The notes under the pieces: generated by a model
Seen by the model: the letters and a program-made list of their open reading frames with translations, nothing else
Databases searched by the model: none
What the model was told of the DNA's origin: nothing
Origin: Candidatus Liptonbacteria bacterium
GTDB lineage: Bacteria; Patescibacteriota; Minisyncoccia; UBA6257; 2-01-FULL-56-20
DNA length: 32,584 bases
Direction: 5' to 3'
Assembly (NCBI GenBank): GCA_016204385.1
Contig: JACQKW010000003.1
Location: 1-32,584 of the forward strand
Part shown: positions 1 through 13,533 of the stretch, one piece after another
Position numbering within the stretch: position 1 is the stretch's first letter
Layout of the letters: every line of letters starts with the position of its first letter
Position numbers and translations under genes: made by a program

Positions 1-1
1 C

Positions 2-87
2 GTCCTTCGACTTCGCTCAGGACTTTTTCCGACACGGAGGGAACCCGGTGGCTTTCCCTCCGACCCACCCTTCGGTTCGAATCCCTG
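2..87 (+). repeat. GACAC-hairpin-GACCC element copy E0 with antisense copy of the tRNA-Gln T-arm (left end may lie outside window)
   Basis: TTCCGACAC-[GGAGGGAA..TTCCCTCC]-GACCC at 27-66 aligns with the element at 10207-10246(-); GGTTCGAATCCCTG (74-87) is the exact reverse complement of 151-164. Confidence 0.7.
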
Positions 88-6173: not shown

Positions 6174-6893
6174 ATGTCAATTTCTCAAAAACTCGTGCTC
6201 GACATCGAAACCGTCGGAGAGGATTTCGATTCCTTGGATAAGGCGACGCAGGAATCACTCACACGGTGGATCAAGCGCGAGTCCGCGGATGACGAAGAAT
6301 ACAAGATCGCGCTTGAGGACTTGAAGAATGGTCTCGGATTTTCGCCACTCACCGCAGAAATAGTCGCGATCGGAATGCTTGATTACCACAAAAACGAAGG
6401 CGCGGTCTACTTTCAGGCGCCCGGCGAAAAGCTCGAGGAAACCAAGGAAGAGGGGATAACCTTCAAGCCGATGGCAGAGAAAGAAATGCTCGAGAAATTC
6501 TGGGACGCGGCGAAACACTATCAGGTGTTCATCACGTTCAATGGCCGCGGTTTCGACGTGCCGTTTTTGATGATCCGTTCCGCAGTACACGGCATCCGGC
6601 CGACCAAAGACCTCCTCCGCGGCCGATACCTCTACCAGCATAACCCCGATGCGCTCCATATTGATCTTCTGGAACAGCTTACGTTCTACGGCGCGACACG
6701 GCGGAAGGGAAGTTTGCACCTCTGGACACGGTCATTCGGCATCCTAAGCCCCAAGGCAAGCGGGGTGACCGGCGACGACGTAGGGCCTTTATTCAAAAAG
6801 AAGAAATATCTCGAGATTGCGAAATACAATGTGGGCGATCTCCGCGCCACGCGGGCACTCTATGAGAAGTGGGAAACATATTTGCGGTTTTAG
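6174..6893 (+). CDS. DEDD 3'-5' exonuclease, PolB-exo/RNase H-like
   Basis: LVLDIET (ExoI), TFNGRGFDVPFL (ExoII), YNVGD (ExoIII). Confidence 0.88.
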   Translation: MSISQKLVLDIETVGEDFDSLDKATQESLTRWIKRESADDEEYKIALEDLKNGLGFSPLTAEIVAIGMLDYHKNEGAVYFQAPGEKLEETKEEGITFKPMAEKEMLEKFWDAAKHYQVFITFNGRGFDVPFLMIRSAVHGIRPTKDLLRGRYLYQHNPDALHIDLLEQLTFYGATRRKGSLHLWTRSFGILSPKASGVTGDDVGPLFKKKKYLEIAKYNVGDLRATRALYEKWETYLRF

Positions 6894-6927
6894 TTGAATA
6901 GGACTTAGTCGTTAGGACATAGTAAAA

Positions 6928-7083
6928 ATGAAAGAAAAACTTCTAAGGTATCGCAAGGAAATCATCTTCGCCATTATCATTTTCCTCGTCGCAAGCACAA
7001 GCTTCGCCTTGGGCTATCTCGCGAACCGCGAATTCAACCACGCGCCGATTATTATCGAGAAATCAAGTAGTGCTCCAGAATAA
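6928..7083 (+). CDS. Small single-TM protein (51 aa; absent from ORF track)
   Basis: MKEKLLRYRKEIIFAIIIFLVASTSFALGYLANREFNHAPIIIEKSSSAPE*, translated by hand. Confidence 0.7.
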   Translation: MKEKLLRYRKEIIFAIIIFLVASTSFALGYLANREFNHAPIIIEKSSSAPE

Positions 7084-7097
7084 AAAAGCTCGGATTG

Positions 7098-7174
7098 ACC
7101 CCGCACCAAACCAAGCGCTGCGCTCTACGTGCTTCCGCACGGAGCAGGATAAAAGCGCTCGGTGGGTGACGGGG
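7098..7174. repeat. ACCCCGCACC...GGTG(AC)GGGG palindromic element
   Basis: Terminal inverted repeats plus inner CCAAGCGCT/AGCGCTCGG arms; related ends at 12031-12055 and 16253-16406. Confidence 0.55.
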
Positions 7175-7192
7175 CGGGCGTACCTCGCAAAG

Positions 7193-7310
7193 AAAAAAGC
7201 CAGCGTTGACGTAGCTGGCCACCACACCTCAAAGGGCTGCTTGGTGCCCCGAGATCACGCCGCCGTACCCCGGCGGAAGGGATCTTTAATCGCCTCCCTT
7301 GGGAGGTGGC
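7193..7310 (-). ncRNA. Candidate structured small RNA (rod with central bubble; 6S-like?)
   Basis: Promoter upstream; CACCTC.CAAGGG/CCCTTTGAGGTG outer stem, AGATC/GATCT and CCGCCG/CGGCGG inner stem; ends in GCCAGC-GCTGGC-T6 terminator. Confidence 0.45.
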
Positions 7311-7313
7311 TTA

Positions 7314-7343
7314 ATGATATACCCGGCCAAAAAACCCTGTCAA
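7314..7343 (-). promoter_or_regulatory. Sigma70-like promoter of candidate sRNA
   Basis: TTGACA (7343-7338, overlapping copZ stop)-18 nt-TATCAT (7319-7314). Confidence 0.55.
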
Positions 7344-7546
7344 GAGGCCGTATATCCCAAATCCGCAATTGCTTTCACGATGTCTTCCTTTTTTACCTTC
7401 GCGGGATCGAATTCGAACGTTCCCTTCTTATCGTCGTAGCTTACTTCGGCTGATTTCACGCCGCCCATCTGCGACGCGAGCATCTGTATCCCCACGGCGC
7501 AGGAACCGCAATGCATTCCGTCTATCTTTAACGTAAGTTTCTCCAT
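7340..7546 (-). CDS. copZ: Copper chaperone (single HMA domain)
   Basis: IDGMHCGSC motif, C-terminal IADLGY; follows P1B ATPase. Confidence 0.9.
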   Translation of the reverse strand: MEKLTLKIDGMHCGSCAVGIQMLASQMGGVKSAEVSYDDKKGTFEFDPAKVKKEDIVKAIADLGYTAS

Positions 7547-7553
7547 AGAAATA

Positions 7554-7694
7554 TTATAAGACGGAATGCACTTCGGGCAAAAGGGGGTCCCGCCTCTGTC
7601 CCGCCACCGCGGGACTACGGACGGGCAAGCGGGGAAAAGGTTTGTTTTCCCGGTGTCTGAAGACCCCGCCTCCGGCGGGGGCGTTAGAAACCAT
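7554..7694 (-). repeat. GACAC-hairpin-GACCC element copy E1 with antisense copy of copZ GMHC codons; open throughout as a 46-aa ORF
   Basis: 7653-7692 matches 10238-10277 at 37/40 nt; 7559-7570 is the exact reverse complement of 7512-7523. Confidence 0.75.
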
Positions 7695-7699
7695 TGAAT

Positions 7700-10171
7700 C
7701 TACGCCTTTTTCTCCATCGGCGGCGTGTAGCGCCGAAGCAAAAGCGAATTCGTGACGACCGACACAGAACTTAGCGCCATCGCAAATCCGGCGATCTCGG
7801 GCCGCAAGGTCGCCTGCGAGAGATTGAAGAAAATCTGCCCGATGCCGGAACCGAGCGCATTGCGCGCGGCGAGTATCCAGTCTGACGGCACGCCGAAGGA
7901 CGATTGCGTGAGAAGCAAATGAATGCCTCCCGCAATCGGTATCGCGATGATGTTGTAGATGAACGCCCAGAAGAGATTTTGCCACACCTTCTTGATGGTC
8001 TTTTTGGAAAGCTGGATCGCGGTGACCACGTCGCGGAGGTCATCCTTGACCAAAATCACTTCTCCGGTCTCGATCGCTACGTCCGTGCCCGAACCGATGG
8101 CGATGCCCACCTCCGCCTGCGCGAGGGCAGGGGAGTCGTTGATGCCGTCGCCAACCATCGCAACTTTTTTACCCTCCGCTTGGAGTTTTTTCACGACGTC
8201 CGCTTTCTGCTGGGGCAAAACCTGCGCGAGATAGCGGTCAATGCCAAGTTGGTGCGAAATTGCCTCGGCGGTTTTGGGGTTATCGCCCGTGATCATGATA
8301 ATTTCCTTGCCCATTTTCTTTAATCCCTCTATCGCCTCATGCGCGTGAGGTTTCAAAGTATCCGCGAGCGCGAGAATGCCGATAATTTTCTTCTCTGACG
8401 CCAAAAATACGACGGTTTTCGCCTCTCTCTGTAATTTTTCCACATCCACCTCGAATTCCTTGATATCCATTCCCAAACTTTCAACGAACGCGCTGTTGCC
8501 GATATGCACTTCCTTGTTCCCGATTTTTCCCTTCACGCCCAAACCCGCCACCGCCTCGAAATCGGTCACTTTGGGGAGCTCGCCGATCTCCGCTTTCGCT
8601 TTCTCCACGATCGCGCGCGCAAGCGGATGTTCGGAGCCCGTCTCAAGCGCGCCTGCAATCGCAAGCGCATCTTTTTTATTCATATCCCCAACCACCATAA
8701 AATCGGTGACGTTTGGCTTCCCGATCGTGAGCGTCCCCGTCTTGTCAAATGCAACGGTCGTAATTCTGTATGATTTTTCAAGCGCTTCGCCGCCCTTGAG
8801 AATTATGCCGAAATTGGTCGCGCGGCCGATGCCCACGATGAGCGCTGTGGGCGTGGCTAACCCCAAAGCGCAGGGGCAAGAGATCACCAAGACCGCGATC
8901 ATGCGGAGGAGGCCCGCACGGAAGGGGAGACCTGCCCCGAAATACCACCCCGCAAAGACCGCGATCGAGAGCAGGACCACGGCGGGCACGAAGTATTCGC
9001 TGATTTTGTCCACAAGATTCTCGATAGGCGCTCGCGACGCCTGCGCTTCCTCCACCATCCGCACCACCTGATAGAGGAACGTGTCTTTGCCGACCTTCGT
9101 TGCTTTGAAGGTTATCAAACCCTCCTGATTGATGGATGCGCCGATCACTTCGTCGCCCACGGTTTTCGAGACCGGATACGACTCGCCGGTCACCACTTTC
9201 TCGTCAATGTGGCTTTTTCCTTCGGTGATCATCCCGTCCACGGGGATCTTTTCGCCCGGCCGGACCACGATAAGGTCGCCTTCCTTAAGCTGGTCTACGG
9301 GCACAAGCTCTTCTTTACCGCCCTTCAGAACATGCGCCTCTTTTGCCTCGAGTTTCAAGAGTTCTTTGATGGCGTTCGATGCCCTTCCCTTTGCGCGCGC
9401 TTCGAGAAATCTTCCGAGGAGAATGAATGACAGAAGCGCCGCCGAGGACTCCCAGAACGGGTGGTCAATGTTAAAGAAAAGAAATCCGATTGCCGAGTAG
9501 AAGTACGCGGCAGAGGTCCCTAAGGCGACAAGCACATCCATGTTTGCCGAGCCCACGCGGATGGAGGTGAAGGAATTGCGGTAAAACGGCCACGCAATCA
9601 CAAACTGTATCGGCGTGGAGAGCACCCAGTAAATATAGTTCAGATCTATCCGAAACGGGGGATTCGCCACATTCACGAAAATGCCCGCGATGGCTTTTGA
9701 TGGTTGCGCCACGATCCAGAAAAGGTAATTCGTAAAGAATGAGCCGTATGCGGCAAATCCCTCCCCGGTGAGCGACGGCTGGCGGAGATTCAGAAAATCA
9801 AACAATTCATGCACATGCGTTACGTTGAACATGTGGATGAGCATATAGTAGAGGATGATGGGCGCGGAAATGACGAACGCGGCAATCACGCGGCGCTTTG
9901 CCTCCTCGATCTGGCGCGCTTCTTTTGCCTCCTCGTCCGCGGGCGTCGCTCCGGCTTCATCCGGCCGGATGAGGTCATAACCCAGCTTATTGATAAGCTC
10001 ATCAATCCGCGTGAGCGTGATCTTCGATTCGTCGAACTCGATCGCCACCTTCTCCGCGCCGTAGCTCGTCGTGATGGACGTGATGCCCTCCTGCTTGCCG
10101 ATCAATTTATCAATCAAGACCGAACAGGAAGCGCAATGCATTCCTTTAACTTTTAAAATATATTTACTCAT
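7700..10171 (-). CDS. copA: Cu(I)-translocating P1B-type ATPase
   Basis: N-terminal GMHCASC HMA, TGES, CPC in TM, DKTGT, SEHPLA, GDGIND, YN..IP and MALSS Cu(I) signatures. Confidence 0.95.
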
Positions 10172-10389
10172 CGTTGTGTGTTAAAGGAATGCATTGCGCC
10201 GAAGAAGGGGTCGGGAGGAAAGTATGAAGTTCCTCCCGTGTCGGAAGACCCCGCCTCCGGCGGGGGAGCTAGAAACCCCGCCTTCGCCCAACGGCTACGG
10301 ACGGGCAGGCAAGGGTGTCTAAGGAGTTTTGAGCGGCAGTCGAAAGACGACGCACAATGCATTCCTTTCACCTTGAGAACGTATTTCAT
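10168..10389 (-). repeat. GACAC-hairpin-GACCC element copy E2 between a duplicated copA 5' end and copA; open as a 73-aa ORF overlapping the copA start (ATGA)
   Basis: 10180-10199 is a perfect 20-bp inverted repeat of 10131-10150; 10348-10389 encodes [14 protein letters not shown] versus Cop[16 protein letters not shown]. Confidence 0.8.
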
Positions 10390-10391
10390 AT

Positions 10392-10862
10392 CTACTGGGT
10401 CTCCGAAATTATGCTCCTCACATGCATCTTCCCGATTTGATCAAAATGCCCGCGCTTTTCTCCGGCATATGCTCCGCCCTCCACCACGCCGCCCGGGAGT
10501 ATCGAGCTGTCGCCGCAGGGAACGGAGCAGTAATAGGGGAAATCGCCGACCTGCGTCGCGACAAATTCGGCTTTTATAGTCTGGTTCGCGGGCACCCGCT
10601 GGGAAATGCCGAATGCGTCAATCGAGAATCCGTGGTCAAAATCATCTTCATTGACGACGGTAAGAATAATTTTATCTCCGCGTTCAACCGTAATTTCCTC
10701 GGGGTCGAATGTCCAATGGAGCTTCCGCGCGGTAATTGTAATCTCGCGGACGTTTCCCGTTGTAACCGGCGCGGACTCTTCCGACCGGATAAACGCGGTA
10801 TAGGCGATTCCACCTCCGATGATGACAATTCCTACGATGATGAGCCAAAGGTATTTGTTCAT
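10392..10862 (-). CDS. Membrane-anchored cupredoxin-domain protein
   Basis: N-terminal TM; FDPEEITVERGD, HGFSI, YYCSVPCG...GHFDQ (CuA/COX2-like fold motifs). Confidence 0.85.
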   Translation of the reverse strand: MNKYLWLIIVGIVIIGGGIAYTAFIRSEESAPVTTGNVREITITARKLHWTFDPEEITVERGDKIILTVVNEDDFDHGFSIDAFGISQRVPANQTIKAEFVATQVGDFPYYCSVPCGDSSILPGGVVEGGAYAGEKRGHFDQIGKMHVRSIISETQ

Positions 10863-10925
10863 AAATTCAAAATTCTAATATCTAAATTCTAAACAAATTA
10901 TAAGCAACAAATTCTAAACTCTAGA
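10863..10925. repeat. AAATTCT-type heptamer array (downstream arm of four-helix-bundle gene)
   Basis: AAATTCA AAATTCT AATATCT AAATTCT AAAC...; inverted relative to 11269-11325. Confidence 0.75.
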
Positions 10926-10927
10926 CA

Positions 10928-11293
10928 TTACTTTGATTTCTCTATTATTGAGCCGAGGATTTTCATAAGTTCTGTTGACTCTTGAATAAGCATTTCTTGT
11001 TCATGGCGATTTTCTTCTCCTGGCTCCGCGAGTCTTAGCCACAGCCTACTCTCCTTTGCCTCCTTTTTGGAAATCTTAGCTCGCATAAGAAAATCCTTCT
11101 TACTTAGAGATTCGTTCGCTTCGATATAATTCGCGGCAACAGAACCAGCAGATCGGACAAGTTGCTTGCCGTTTTCGATATTCGGTATGGTCTTCGGCAA
11201 TTTGTTCACGTAATTATTCACACGTTTTGCAAAATTCAACGTTCGTTCCTCAAGATTATAATTGCCTCGTTTGGAATTTGGAATTTCGCCCAT
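10928..11293 (-). CDS. Four helix bundle protein (23S rRNA intervening-sequence protein family)
   Basis: LEERTLNFA, QLVRSAGSVAANYIEA, KKEAKESRLWL motifs. Confidence 0.9.
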   Translation of the reverse strand: MGEIPNSKRGNYNLEERTLNFAKRVNNYVNKLPKTIPNIENGKQLVRSAGSVAANYIEANESLSKKDFLMRAKISKKEAKESRLWLRLAEPGEENRHEQEMLIQESTELMKILGSIIEKSK

Positions 11294-11325
11294 TTGGGAT
11301 TTGTTTAGAGTTTAGGATTTCGGAT
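11269..11325. repeat. Inverted heptamer array (upstream arm of four-helix-bundle gene)
   Basis: ATTTGTTTAGAGTTTAG (11299-11315) is reverse-complementary at 16/17 nt to 10882-10898. Confidence 0.75.
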
Positions 11326-13533
11326 TTAGGGCTTCTTCATCACAGGAACCGTGATATAGCGCTTCACCCCCCAGCTCAGGAGCACGATTGCGATCGCTGA
11401 CCAAATGAGATTGATCCACCACGGCGAAAGGGAAAGCCCGGGTCCTGCGGCCGCCACCTCTACATAAAATTCGGCAGTGAGCGCCTCGTCGGGAGGGAGA
11501 TCAATGCCTTTCGGGCGGAATTGCGCGAAGAGCTTGTAGATTCCTTCCTCGGGGAAGGTGACATGGAATGAAATCTGTTCCGTCGGCTCATGGGAGTGTT
11601 CACCGCCGTTCGCACGCGCGAGCGGAACAATGCCGGGCGCGCGGCTGTGGAGATGGTCGCCGCTCTCGGGATGCGTGTGGATATACGCGCCCCAATCATC
11701 TTTGATAATCGTAAGATGCATATCCGCCGCAAGGTACGGTTCAACCTCGACTGGCGTGCCAAGCACGTCGCGGATCTCGAAGACCAAATCTGCTTCCCGC
11801 TCTTTCACAAGCCGCTCTCCGCCAGAGAAGCCAACCTGATAGTCGCCCACGATTACGTTCGTGAGGTATTCGACACTTTTTTCACTCCGCGGGCCGTCTC
11901 CTTCCACGGAAAACGGAAGGTGGCCAGTCGAGTGTGTCTCGCCACCGCGCCTCACATCAGACCATACCTTGTAGGTACCCGGCTTCTTGAACACATAGGG
12001 CACTGACCAGTAGCCCGTCTGCTGGGGGTGCCCCAGCACCACGTCGGGTGCGGGGCTACCCTGAACCCCGCGTGGTTCAGGGTGGATATGAAAAAATTCA
12101 TTCAGGTCGTCGCGGGCACCAATCACATGAATGAACTTTTCATGCTCAATCTCAAGGTCGGTAACCGGAACATTCCCCGGTTTTTTATTCACAAAGAAAT
12201 CGAGCCGCGCGATGGTCCCCGCGAGGACAGGAACAGGCGTGATATTGAAATTCACCGCAAGGCCTTCCGTGATTTCCCCTTCCTCGTGGTAGAGCGCGCC
12301 GCCGTGCGCCTCGTTATGGCCGTCCGGTATCATGCCGCCCTCCATGCGCATCTCTTCCGCGGCATGCGCCGCAGTTTGGTGCCGAAAGCGAGCCGGCAGA
12401 GCATAGCCGAACACCGCAATAAGGAGGAGGGAAAGCGTAACGAAATTCCAAAAAAGATATGGTAGCGTTCGCCTTGCGGTAGTTTTTTCTGGCGTTTCAG
12501 ACATAGCTTCTACTTCTTTCTTTTTCTTCTTATAGTGCCAGAAAAACGGCAGGATCCAGAGGAACAGCAGGACCCACGTGCCCCACGCAAGCGGCAACCC
12601 CAAGAGCCCCGTGTGGCCCGCAAGTTCCTCCCCGCCGTGGGCATGGGGCGCCGCCGCTCCCAAGCGTTCCGATATGGCTCCCAAAAACCGTTCCTCTTGG
12701 GTAATTTCTTCAAGAAGCGTGTGCTGTCCCGAAAGCACCCACCAATCGTGCGTAAAGAGTCCTAAGACAATAATGAAACCGGCAACGAATACCATGCCCC
12801 AGCCGGTCGCGCGCGAAATTTTTTCCTTGTGCTTCACCAAAGCATTCAGCGCATTCACGCCGATAATGCCCAGGATCGCGAGGAAAAGAAGCGGCAGGAT
12901 GCGGCCGATCGCGTGCACGAAAAAGAGGAGCCAGCCGTAGAACACGTCTCCGGAGACGGCGATCCTCGTGAATATCACGGGCGTTGCGGGGTGGGGGCAT
13001 CCCACGCCGATGTTGCCGAGGAACAATCCCAAGAGAAGCGCCTTGAATACGTCTTGCTGGCGCTGAATGAATCCGGGGAACGCGCCGCTGTAGGACGGCA
13101 TGTGGAAATTCACGAGCCCAAGCTCGCCCAGCGCAAAAAGATAGGCGAACGCTCCGGCAACAAAATAGAGCCAGTTCTTTACCGTCTCGAGCGGGGCGCC
13201 CAAGCCCTCGATCGCTACCTTCCCAACGATCGCAGCGATAACCCCATACATGCTAAGGGTGACGGCCACGCCCAACCCAAACGCGATTGCAATCAGAAAT
13301 CCCTTCGCCGGCCCCTTACCCATCGAGAGAGGCACGATCACAAATGCCAAAGGCAGGGTGCAGGGGAGCACGATCATCGAGAGTCCTGCCGCGAAGCTGA
13401 AGAGATACCATCCAAAGCCCACGGGAGCGGCGGCGCCCGCGCCGAAGAAAAACCAAACTAAACCGAACGCGATAATCGCAAGAAACGCGAAGAGAAATGC
13501 GATGAGAAATTTTTTCGATCCGGATTCTCCCAT
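11326..13533 (-). CDS. CcdA/DsbD-beta-like membrane domain fused to two His-rich extracytoplasmic domains
   Basis: FAAGLSMIVLPCTLP and GVGCPHP TM cysteines; HEKFIHV..FFHIHP and MHLTII..YIHTHP repeats, G.YK.(W/F) motifs; C-terminal TM. Confidence 0.8.
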   Translation of the reverse strand: MGESGSKKFLIAFLFAFLAIIAFGLVWFFFGAGAAAPVGFGWYLFSFAAGLSMIVLPCTLPLAFVIVPLSMGKGPAKGFLIAIAFGLGVAVTLSMYGVIAAIVGKVAIEGLGAPLETVKNWLYFVAGAFAYLFALGELGLVNFHMPSYSGAFPGFIQRQQDVFKALLLGLFLGNIGVGCPHPATPVIFTRIAVSGDVFYGWLLFFVHAIGRILPLLFLAILGIIGVNALNALVKHKEKISRATGWGMVFVAGFIIVLGLFTHDWWVLSGQHTLLEEITQEERFLGAISERLGAAAPHAHGGEELAGHTGLLGLPLAWGTWVLLFLWILPFFWHYKKKKKEVEAMSETPEKTTARRTLPYLFWNFVTLSLLLIAVFGYALPARFRHQTAAHAAEEMRMEGGMIPDGHNEAHGGALYHEEGEITEGLAVNFNITPVPVLAGTIARLDFFVNKKPGNVPVTDLEIEHEKFIHVIGARDDLNEFFHIHPEPRGVQGSPAPDVVLGHPQQTGYWSVPYVFKKPGTYKVWSDVRRGGETHSTGHLPFSVEGDGPRSEKSVEYLTNVIVGDYQVGFSGGERLVKEREADLVFEIRDVLGTPVEVEPYLAADMHLTIIKDDWGAYIHTHPESGDHLHSRAPGIVPLARANGGEHSHEPTEQISFHVTFPEEGIYKLFAQFRPKGIDLPPDEALTAEFYVEVAAAGPGLSLSPWWINLIWSAIAIVLLSWGVKRYITVPVMKKP

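Follow-up and report, generated by a model that had tools for sequence, protein, structure and literature searches.

A putative family of small target-matched mobile DNA elements in Parcubacteria-type bacteria, revealed by a decayed copy between copA and copZ

What kind of sequence places, between two genes, an inverted copy of the start of the gene that follows it? The question is raised by the copper genes copA and copZ in a stretch of 32,584 nucleotides (nt) from Candidatus Liptonbacteria bacterium (GenBank assembly GCA_016204385.1, contig JACQKW010000003.1, positions 1 to 32,584), which is referred to here as the window. The spacer that separates these two genes, E1, resembles a sequence that lies upstream of copA, E2, and each of them carries a short segment that is complementary to the beginning of its own downstream gene. 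We propose that E1 and E2 are copies of a new kind of small (~110-190 nt) non-autonomous mobile DNA element of the Parcubacteria-type bacteria of the Candidate Phyla Radiation (CPR). We put the probability of this at roughly 0.6, and the way in which the element would integrate is a reconstruction from sequence. E1 itself, on comparison with complete copies, is a decayed, 5'-truncated copy of this multi-copy element and is probably immobile, and its interest lies in the family that it reveals.

That E1 and E2 are the same element had been claimed in an earlier note on this DNA from a match of 37/40 nt, and the alignment bears this out because a 43-nt block is common to both (7650-7692 in E1 and 10235-10277 in E2) with 39 of its 43 positions (91%) alike. 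The note had also claimed that the target-matched segment of E1, which we call X', pairs with copZ and not with copA, and this is so, since X' matches codons 8-12 of copZ at every position (Table 1; the pairing partner is called X2). In E1 the order after the pyrimidine tail CCCCTTTT is GCCCGAAG and then X', TGCATTCCGTCT. In E2 the 20 nt that pair with copA without a mismatch are also complementary, at 18/20, to a second, upstream copy of the copA start. The description of E1 as a copy of the element stands, with the correction that it is truncated: the complete copies at the copA-copZ junction of three other genomes (G071, G081 and G122) include a displaced copZ start, whereas E1 lacks this displaced target copy (X1), the 5' module and the 5' half of the hairpin P2. 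The earlier note staked its claim on covariation between the segment and its target in orthologues, and the segment does track the target at both genes. At copZ of G071, GCAATGCATTCCTGATAT pairs with ATATCAGGAATGCATTGC at 18/18, and G081 and G122 have matched pairs of their own; at copA of G036, X' reflects the synonymous changes CAC TGT GC, so that 20 of 20 positions pair.

The family was searched for by BLAST and with a covariance model of a 49-nt core, and its anatomy was read from 92 copies with their flanks. The element, which belongs to CPR bacteria of groundwater, is structured, ~110-190 nt long and multi-copy. The covariance model found it in 88 of 125 genomes of the host's family, with up to 12 copies in each, and, with a patchy spread, in 25 of 150 further genomes drawn from across the class. 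The model matches this genome 11 times; it missed E1 and the C10 copy because of their nested inserts. An exact core pattern occurs at 47 loci in public metagenome-assembled genomes, all of them Patescibacteria/Parcubacteria, under the labels Liptonbacteria, Colwellbacteria, Jorgensenbacteria, Staskawiczbacteria, Wildermuthbacteria, Gribaldobacteria, Paceibacterota and Patescibacteria, with some Saccharibacteria; in viral contigs it occurs at 0 loci. In four groundwater runs the contig depth spikes over the E2 core, as is expected for a community-wide repeat. No ORF-sized insert (ORF, open reading frame), such as an autonomous version would have, was present in any of the 92 copies examined. 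A scan of positions 6800-11400 against Rfam at E <= 10 returned chance-level hairpin matches alone (best E 4.2), and when 15 canonical loci were scanned only the adjacent tRNAs were above threshold. Neither Rfam nor a full-text literature search, judged at the level of abstracts, yielded a description of the element and its layout, and going by these sources the family is apparently undescribed so far.

A complete copy reads, from 5' to 3', X1, a 5' module that begins GTCG and has an optional hairpin, the hairpin P2, another optional hairpin, UUUCCNACAC, the hairpin P3, GAC, a tail that ends in CCUUCG, X', a spacer, X2 and the remainder of the gene. X' directly abuts the core end and is an inverted copy of the final 10-20 nt of X2, the intact gene end next to it. 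A profile over 40 copies shows X2 to be the reverse complement of X' at positions 1-10, counted from the junction, where no position has more than 3 mismatches, and the agreement decays farther out. When a stem was defined by a score of at least 10 between X' (starting at most 14 nt from the core end) and an X2 that lies 3-75 nt downstream, it was present in 59 of 85 distinct copies, whereas shuffling of the downstream sequence gave it in 0 of 425 and the controls with real sequence in 2 of 87. The 3' ends of complete convergent tRNA genes, of 15 amino-acid specificities, are faced by 30 of the 92 copies, and this is a lower bound because the flanks are short. Other convergent targets are the 3' ends of rpsI (ribosomal protein S9) and rpsJ (S10), and on the same strand the element precedes the 5' coding ends of copA, copZ, a dinB-like and an RNase H-like gene. 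Across the element from X' most copies have the third copy of the target, X1, which agrees with X2 at 11/16 identity or better in 40 of 58 copies. The likeness of X1 to X2 stops at a functional boundary, that is at an ATG, at a stop codon, or at the 3' end of a tRNA plus 2-3 nt, and in the protein genes X1 and X2 differ at synonymous sites. In tRNA-type copies the distal 9-20 nt of X1 are nearly identical to X2 and its 8 junction-proximal nt are subfamily-specific (GCGAAC, TCTCAC, TTTCAC). The length of the duplicated target runs from ~7 to 63 nt, X1 and X' differ for each target, and the junctions have no conserved adjacent motif.

These targets modify two points of the earlier note. Covariation of segment and target had been expected among heavy-metal-associated (HMA) genes; this is true of copA and copZ, but the matching is not bound to such genes because tRNA, S9, S10, dinB-like, RNase H-like, fusA and Nudix sites have it too. 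The term antisense, which the note had used for the segment, fits the genes on the same strand but not the convergent genes, where the segment is a sense copy. Since it is sense at the one and antisense at the other, the constant relation is at the level of DNA and is not one of RNA-RNA regulation. This weighs on the explanation of E1 and E2 as cis-regulatory RNAs of the copper operon, either a metal-responsive leader or an antisense attenuator that hides the start of copZ or copA. Such a role would fit the X'/X2 stem, which encloses the start codon in a loop of 37 nt in E1 and of 29 nt in E2, and the element-crossing ORFs, which end at start codons. The folds also beat those of shuffled sequences: RNA of 7705-7500 folds at -81.4 kcal/mol with the X'/X2 stem in the minimum-energy structure (z = -3.52, 0/200 shuffles as good), and for E2 z = -5.7. 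However, tRNA, S9, S10, dinB-like and fusA sequences have the element beside them and a Nudix ORF has it within, it runs both with and against transcription, close copA-copZ clusters are without it at one site or the other, and no Rfam family matches it. As a function of the family, regulation is contradicted by these facts, and we think it very improbable for E1 and E2. A copper riboswitch or leader was rejected because the element does not belong to one gene class and converges on the gene at the 3' ends of tRNA, S9 and S10.

The structure of the element gives a second line of evidence. P2 has the form YYARAACC - 3-nt loop - GGUUYURR and was detected in 77 of the 92 copies, with at least 10 compensatory (Watson-Crick-compatible) variants; its 688 scored pairs comprise 655 Watson-Crick pairs, 0 G-U pairs, 3 A-C pairs and 30 other mismatches. 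P3, in its shifted (corrected) register, is paired in 96.6% of cells, 6 of its 8 pairs change on both sides, and its arms show a few A-C mismatches. The wobble counts of P2 and P3 are not decisive on RNA versus DNA, nor on the strand, and a tetraloop census of 72 hairpins gave no signal (GNRA 3, UNCG 0, reverse complement of GNRA 5). The tail is a parallel pyrimidine copy of the purine arm of P3, with C for G and T for A, and it changes together with the arm: the purine arms GGGAGGAA, GGGAAGGAA, GGGGAAAA and GGGAGGGA go with the tails CCCTCCTT, CCCTTCCTT, CCCCTTTT and CCCTCCCT, respectively. Over 17 distinct arm types this rule gives 107 matches out of 120, compared with a mean of 81.6 and a maximum of 98 on permutation, 0 of 10,000 permutations reaching 107; the antiparallel reading gives 38/120. 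A parallel relation of this kind that covaries with the purine arm is what distinguishes a triple helix, and we take it as the signature of an intramolecular one, in which the tail would be the third strand. The tail has a recurrent A opposite the first A-T pair of P3. On the complementary strand this position would hold a T.A-T triple, canonical for the antiparallel purine/GT motif, and that motif is stable in DNA at neutral pH. Single-stranded DNA in a folded form is therefore no less likely than RNA.

The core has no stop codon in any forward frame. At 10 of 12 5'-end sites the ORF that starts from the displaced ATG crosses the element without a stop and terminates at the real ATG or close to it; in 4 of them, E2 included, stop and start overlap as ATGA. 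In the tRNA-type copies 29 of 72 frames pass through the whole element uninterrupted, and against this background of 40% the 10/12 has a binomial p of ~0.003 (calculated from 10/12 and 29/72). In E1 the earlier note had seen an ORF that begins 5 nt after the copA stop and runs through the element to 7 nt before the copZ ATG; it is there as described, and has been kept although the displaced start is lost. Open frames bear on the idea that the element is a self-splicing or self-cleaving RNA, intron-like, with X' as an exon-binding guide. An in-frame copA would indeed result if the end of X1 were joined to what follows X2, and the conserved structure with its possible triple helix could be that of a ribozyme, but frames that stay open in 10/12 cases, and an insertion into the Nudix gene that is in frame in two genomes, would be needless if the element were spliced out. 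In addition, the convergent copies would require the opposite strand to be active, there is no match to the ribozyme and intron models of Rfam at E <= 10 or E <= 1, and G-U pairs are absent. We consider an intron hardly credible, and the least probable of the explanations discussed here.

Empty and filled sites were compared in 8 copA clusters, that of this genome and seven others at 77-83% amino-acid identity, and the copA-copZ junction could be read in six of them: four are filled, one is empty and one is ambiguous. The empty site, for which the earlier note had suggested looking among relatives, is that of G143, where the copA stop is followed by 12 nt and the ATG, without X'. G071, G081 and G122 have complete copies with the 5' module and the displaced copZ start; G081 has, in addition, an older bare X' paired to the displaced copZ start; G077 has a degenerate start-like remnant alone; and E1 of this genome shares its P3 and tail subtype with the G071 copy. 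At the site upstream of copA, six of the eight clusters are filled and two are empty (G071 and G077), and G122 has two tandem copies there with three copies of the copA start. Since the occupants of this site differ in P2/P3 subtype, they were inserted independently. In one metagenome contig 10171 is linked to 10399 through 7 other letters, which is an empty E2 site in a related organism. Within these clusters copA of G122 (L059) has an in-frame TAA, and in G024 (L066) the copA match is split in two; these may be pseudogenes or assembly errors.

Two other genes show the same kind of insertion. The S9 gene has one or two copies at its end in all 6 genomes of one genus that were examined (a decayed remnant in one of them). 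Read in gene orientation, the gene end with its stop comes first, then a short loop, the inverted copy and the element, and after these an older gene end, also with a stop, and the original terminator; in one genome X1 equals X2 at 22/22 positions, stop codon included. No strain-level empty S9 site was found among the six genomes, which are 64-93% alike at this locus. In the Nudix gene the element and a 27-nt hairpin are inserted in frame (residues ~67-110 of 206) in this genome (G000) and in G001, with hairpin arms that differ compensatorily between the two, and 9 aligned orthologues are empty. A motif of ~27 nt, TTCGAC-NNN-GCTCAGG with a short flanking inverted repeat, recurs inside the 5' module of the element, and the same motif alone is an in-frame insertion, 'PSTNAQG', in the Nudix gene of this genome and two relatives (window 1-25; Nudix gene at L024, C7; L062).

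The limits of the moving unit can be read from an ectopic copy upstream of rpsL in this genome (C15:8690-8905; L185 4690-4905). It consists of ATTGACGCG, the element, X', a spacer in which a remnant resembles the rpsG 3' end, and an ATG with 63 nt of the fusA start ending in ATTGACGCG, after which unrelated sequence follows. The real fusA start is ~1.3 kb downstream, and the unit is flanked by ATTGACGCG as a 9-bp repeat. As far as its sequence can be read, this unit shows that the element, X', the spacer and the gene-end copy can move as one module, and that 9 bp of junction identity sufficed for integration. The sequence after the fusA fragment (TTCGCCGGCGCTCATGG..) may be a further degenerate insert.

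The alternative that the moving unit is X1-element-X' must be weighed against this. Here the element would be like a transposable element of the miniature inverted-repeat kind (MITE), its terminal inverted repeats copied from the neighbouring sequence by template switching at insertion or by later quasi-palindrome correction, and the complementarity of X' and X2 would be kept without selection. When the element is taken out X1 directly abuts X' as a palindrome, tRNA-type spacers look resident, several copies have hairpins with short loops of 3-6 nt, and the hairpin arms of G000 and G001 change together even within a coding region, all of which speaks for this alternative. On the other hand, the ectopic unit has a long gene-end copy on the X2 side (63 nt with the ATG) and only 9 nt on the X1 side, the likeness of X1 and X2 ends at functional boundaries and in the protein genes has diverged at synonymous sites, and the X1-proximal positions of tRNA-type-B copies are unpaired with X'. 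We therefore judge this alternative unlikely. A MITE of the classical type was rejected because neither constant terminal inverted repeats nor a target duplication of fixed length is found. Rickettsia palindromic elements and other MITEs insert in frame into genes and have constant terminal repeats, with no target-matched segment or gene-end duplication. In a comparison by description only, the present element is like the Rickettsia elements in being small, palindromic, multi-copy, stop-poor and tolerated in ORFs, as is the in-frame Nudix copy.

In the mechanism that we favour, the mobile unit would be the element, X', the spacer and the unit's own copy of the gene end. It would integrate at the resident copy of that end by recombination directed by pairing or homology, in a Campbell-like manner, and the resident end would be displaced as X1 while the unit supplies a working replacement, that is a start codon with the first codons, or the 3' end of a tRNA or ORF. 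The X'/X2 hairpin in single-stranded DNA, together with the triplex-capable P3-tail, would be the likely substrate of a putative trans-acting or host activity. X' would match its target because both travel in one unit, synonymous sites included (as in the 20/20 of copA in G036), and since the unit carries its own gene end the genes would stay intact and highly conserved sequences can be targets. A precedent is found in the integrative elements that insert into the 3' ends of tRNA or transfer-messenger RNA genes and bring a replacement gene end (Campbell-type). As in those, the insert is flanked by direct repeats of the target, the insert-borne end keeps the gene intact, and the likeness of the repeats stops at the gene boundary. 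This is seen in the X1/X2 agreement in 40/58 copies, in the 22/22 of S9 and in the ectopic fusA start. Unlike them, the insert here is ~150-300 bp, it has no integrase gene (0/92 copies), its targets are many and include the 5' ends of protein genes, and it has an inverted target copy. By analogy, its way of working appears closest to that of an integrative element which brings a replacement gene end, reduced here to some 200 bp.

Several points weigh against this mechanism. There is no excision product, circle junction or transposition event among our observations, and no candidate enzyme is consistently present in this genome and five high-copy genomes. Simple Campbell integration does not predict the 8 junction-proximal differences of X1 in tRNA-type copies. 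The tRNA-type spacer, a terminator, is unlike between genera for the same tRNA and therefore could be resident, which fits a unit of X1-element-X' better. The origin of a new X'/X2 pair for a new target is explained by no model that we considered, and the copy and genome counts overstate the number of events because related genomes are non-independent.

The variable segment next to a constant scaffold also suggests a programmable guide, in which X', as RNA or single-stranded DNA, would direct a putative nuclease or recombinase to X and so set both boundaries and the integration site; this would extend the logic of IS608 guides, TnpB omega RNA and IS110 bridge RNA to 10-20 nt. The features that agree with this are that a conserved structured scaffold is directly followed by a variable 10-20-nt segment, often with a terminator-like hairpin, that, counted from the first base of X', the two junctions stop at one and the same nucleotide, that the 9 bp at which the ectopic unit integrated match the part of X covered by X', and that there are tandem re-insertions at the same junction. 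Against it, an intact X2 would stay a target after insertion, the junctions lack a conserved adjacent motif, and the absence of G-U among the 688 scored pairs of P2 gives no support for an RNA structure. The enzymes of the known guide systems do not follow the element either. In this genome, which is 80% complete, TnpB (PF07282), IS110 (PF01548), Y1 (PF01797) and tyrosine recombinase families were not found; in the five high-copy genomes Y1 was found only in G138, TnpB above cut-off and IS110 in none, and a tyrosine recombinase above cut-off in four. On balance we find a guide doubtful.

The known systems with guides were compared one by one. Elements of the IS200/IS605 family, such as IS608, transpose as single strands, and their internal guides recognise cleavage and target sites by base pairing, according to two papers (PMC3201880, PMC5934647). 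The present element shares with IS608 the hairpin-structured ends and a target and end that are complementary to an internal segment, so that specificity could be reprogrammed through the segment. It differs from IS608, which has 4-nt guides and no target duplication, in a complementarity of 10-20 nt, in having no fixed target tetranucleotide, and in the occurrence of Y1 in 1 of 6 genomes tested. An IS200/IS605-derived element (PATE) was rejected because the left flanks differ for each target with no fixed target of 4-5 nt, and PF01797 was not found here and was found in 1/5 of the high-copy genomes. With omega RNA and bridge RNA the element has in common a structured scaffold of ~100-150 nt followed by a variable ~10-20-nt segment that matches the adjacent DNA. 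However, in TnpB omega RNA (reRNA) the guide is the flank itself and not an inverted nearby copy, whereas X' is an inverted copy of nearby sequence. TnpB omega RNA was rejected in the light of 0 matches to PF07282 in this genome, none above cut-off in the 5 others and no match to an Rfam reRNA model, and IS110 bridge RNA in the light of PF01548 in 0/6 genomes.

Two other possible catalysts in this genome were rejected. The sole reverse transcriptase belongs to a diversity-generating retroelement that is not linked to copies of the element; it lies at C8:37000-39600 (L128 3500-6100) and consists of a 366-aa reverse transcriptase gene, an Avd-like four-helix-bundle ORF, a template repeat and a target gene ending ..WFDNEWFSHYRFAAVRK. 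The large serine recombinase (553 aa), likewise not linked to copies, is in an unrelated island at C15:4450-7975 (L185 453-3975), where its gene and a DNA methyltransferase gene (DPPYN motif) adjoin tRNA-Arg(tcg), and this may be a small integrated island. If the strands of evidence are drawn together more boldly, the element could be the non-coding half of a programmable, pairing-directed integration system. A triplex scaffold of ~130 nt would present X' (10-20 nt), which would set the excision and insertion sites by pairing, the spare gene end would make the insertion harmless, and the catalyst would be an unrecognised protein or a host function that acts on folded single-stranded DNA taken up by DNA-scavenging bacteria. 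This is offered tentatively, as a conjecture with the odds against it.

Features of the locus are collected in Table 1. In E2 (10312-10278) and the C6 copy of this genome a GC-rich nested hairpin of 35-40 nt (..GCCCGTCCGTAG..GGCGAAGGCGG) occupies the P2 loop, and in E1 (7629-7590) and the C10 copy it occupies the linker between P3 and the tail. That it is placed differently in E1 and E2 had been seen before, and its length in E1, given earlier as ~41 nt, is 40 nt. It appears to behave like a still smaller insert of its own, and insertion into the P3-tail linker would be compatible with the triple-helix fold. Related hairpins with GCGAAGCGGG are present in copies from G122 and G025. As to local expression, the genes are 12 nt apart in the empty junction of G143 and the ORF of E1 bridges the gap, and therefore it plausibly restores translational coupling of copA and copZ. 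Insertion at copA-copZ might be tolerated in two ways, by this stop-free ORF, which would carry ribosomes to 7 nt before the copZ ATG, and by the -35/-10-like site in the tail, X' and loop.

Table 1. Positions in the window of the copper genes, the element copies and their parts.
Feature	Positions	Strand	Remarks
Cupredoxin-like gene	10862..10392	-	
Displaced copA start ORF	10168..10389	-	X1 at 10371-10352; 73 codons through E2; stop overlaps copA ATG (ATGA)
E2	10172..10351	-	complete copy upstream of copA: 5' module, P2 with nested insert, hairpin, P3, tail, X'
X' of E2	10199-10180	-	20/20 complementary to copA codons 10150-10131
copA	10171..7700	-	
E1	7547..7699	-	entire 153-nt copA-copZ spacer; 5'-truncated element copy
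Bridging ORF of E1	7554..7694	-	46 codons; ATG at 7694, 5 nt past copA stop; stop 7556-7554, 7 nt before copZ ATG
P2 3' half, GGTTTCTAAC	7692-7683	-	5' partner deleted in E1
Optional GC-rich hairpin, CCCCCGCC-GGAG-GCGGGG	7664..7681	-	also present in E2
Segment TCTTCAGACAC	7663-7653	-	ends in GACAC; between GC hairpin and P3
P3, CGGGAAAA / TTTTCCCCG	7630..7652	-	purine arm pairs with pyrimidine arm
Nested hairpin insert, CTTGCCCGTCCGTAG..GGCGG	7590..7629	-	40 nt; within P3-tail linker
GAC linker	7589-7587	-	
Pyrimidine tail, CCCCTTTT	7586-7579	-	parallel pyrimidine copy of P3 purine arm; candidate triple-helix third strand
Promoter-like TTGCCC-16 nt-TATAAT	7553..7580	-	spans tail, X' and loop; -10 hexamer ends 6 nt before copZ ATG; consensus match alone
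X' of E1, TGCATTCCGTCT	7570-7559	-	inverted copZ target copy; complementary 12/12 to 7523-7512
copZ	7546..7340	-	
X2 of E1, AGACGGAATGCA	7523-7512	-	copZ codons 8-12; partner of X'
Third copy of the element	26..75	+	cut by contig end; X' GGTTCGAATCCCTG faces 3' end of convergent tRNA-Gln (142-213, minus)

The copper cluster has other neighbours that were observed in passing. At 11326-13533 of the window, upstream of the cluster, is the gene of a 735-aa membrane protein with a His-rich C-terminal domain (HPESGDHLH, HSHEP), which may serve metal handling. Inverted repeats of 29 nt that are rich in AAATTCTAAA lie on either side of a four-helix-bundle protein gene (10928..11293, minus strand), presumably one of the type known from 23S rRNA intervening sequences (window 10870-11327). 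Metagenome contig depth spikes at 10809-10900, with many loose ends at 10862/10898, and this resembles another small mobile cassette.

CPR genomes are tiny and have few recognisable transposons, yet this family reaches at least 11 copies in a 0.6-Mb genome and recurs across candidate phyla. Three of its parts are unusual: a covarying scaffold with a third strand of triplex type, an inverted copy of the neighbouring gene end, and a spare gene end that keeps the gene working. If it is true that X' directs integration, this would be a very compact natural system of sequence-programmed DNA insertion without a known RNA-guided enzyme. Even on a conservative view the family accounts for gene starts that are duplicated and for the false short ORFs and odd leader ORFs of CPR annotations, and copies of the element are markers of horizontal exchange. 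Selfish DNA, if that is what the element is, can in this manner enter essential genes, such as those of tRNA, S9, S10 and fusA, at no cost to the host.

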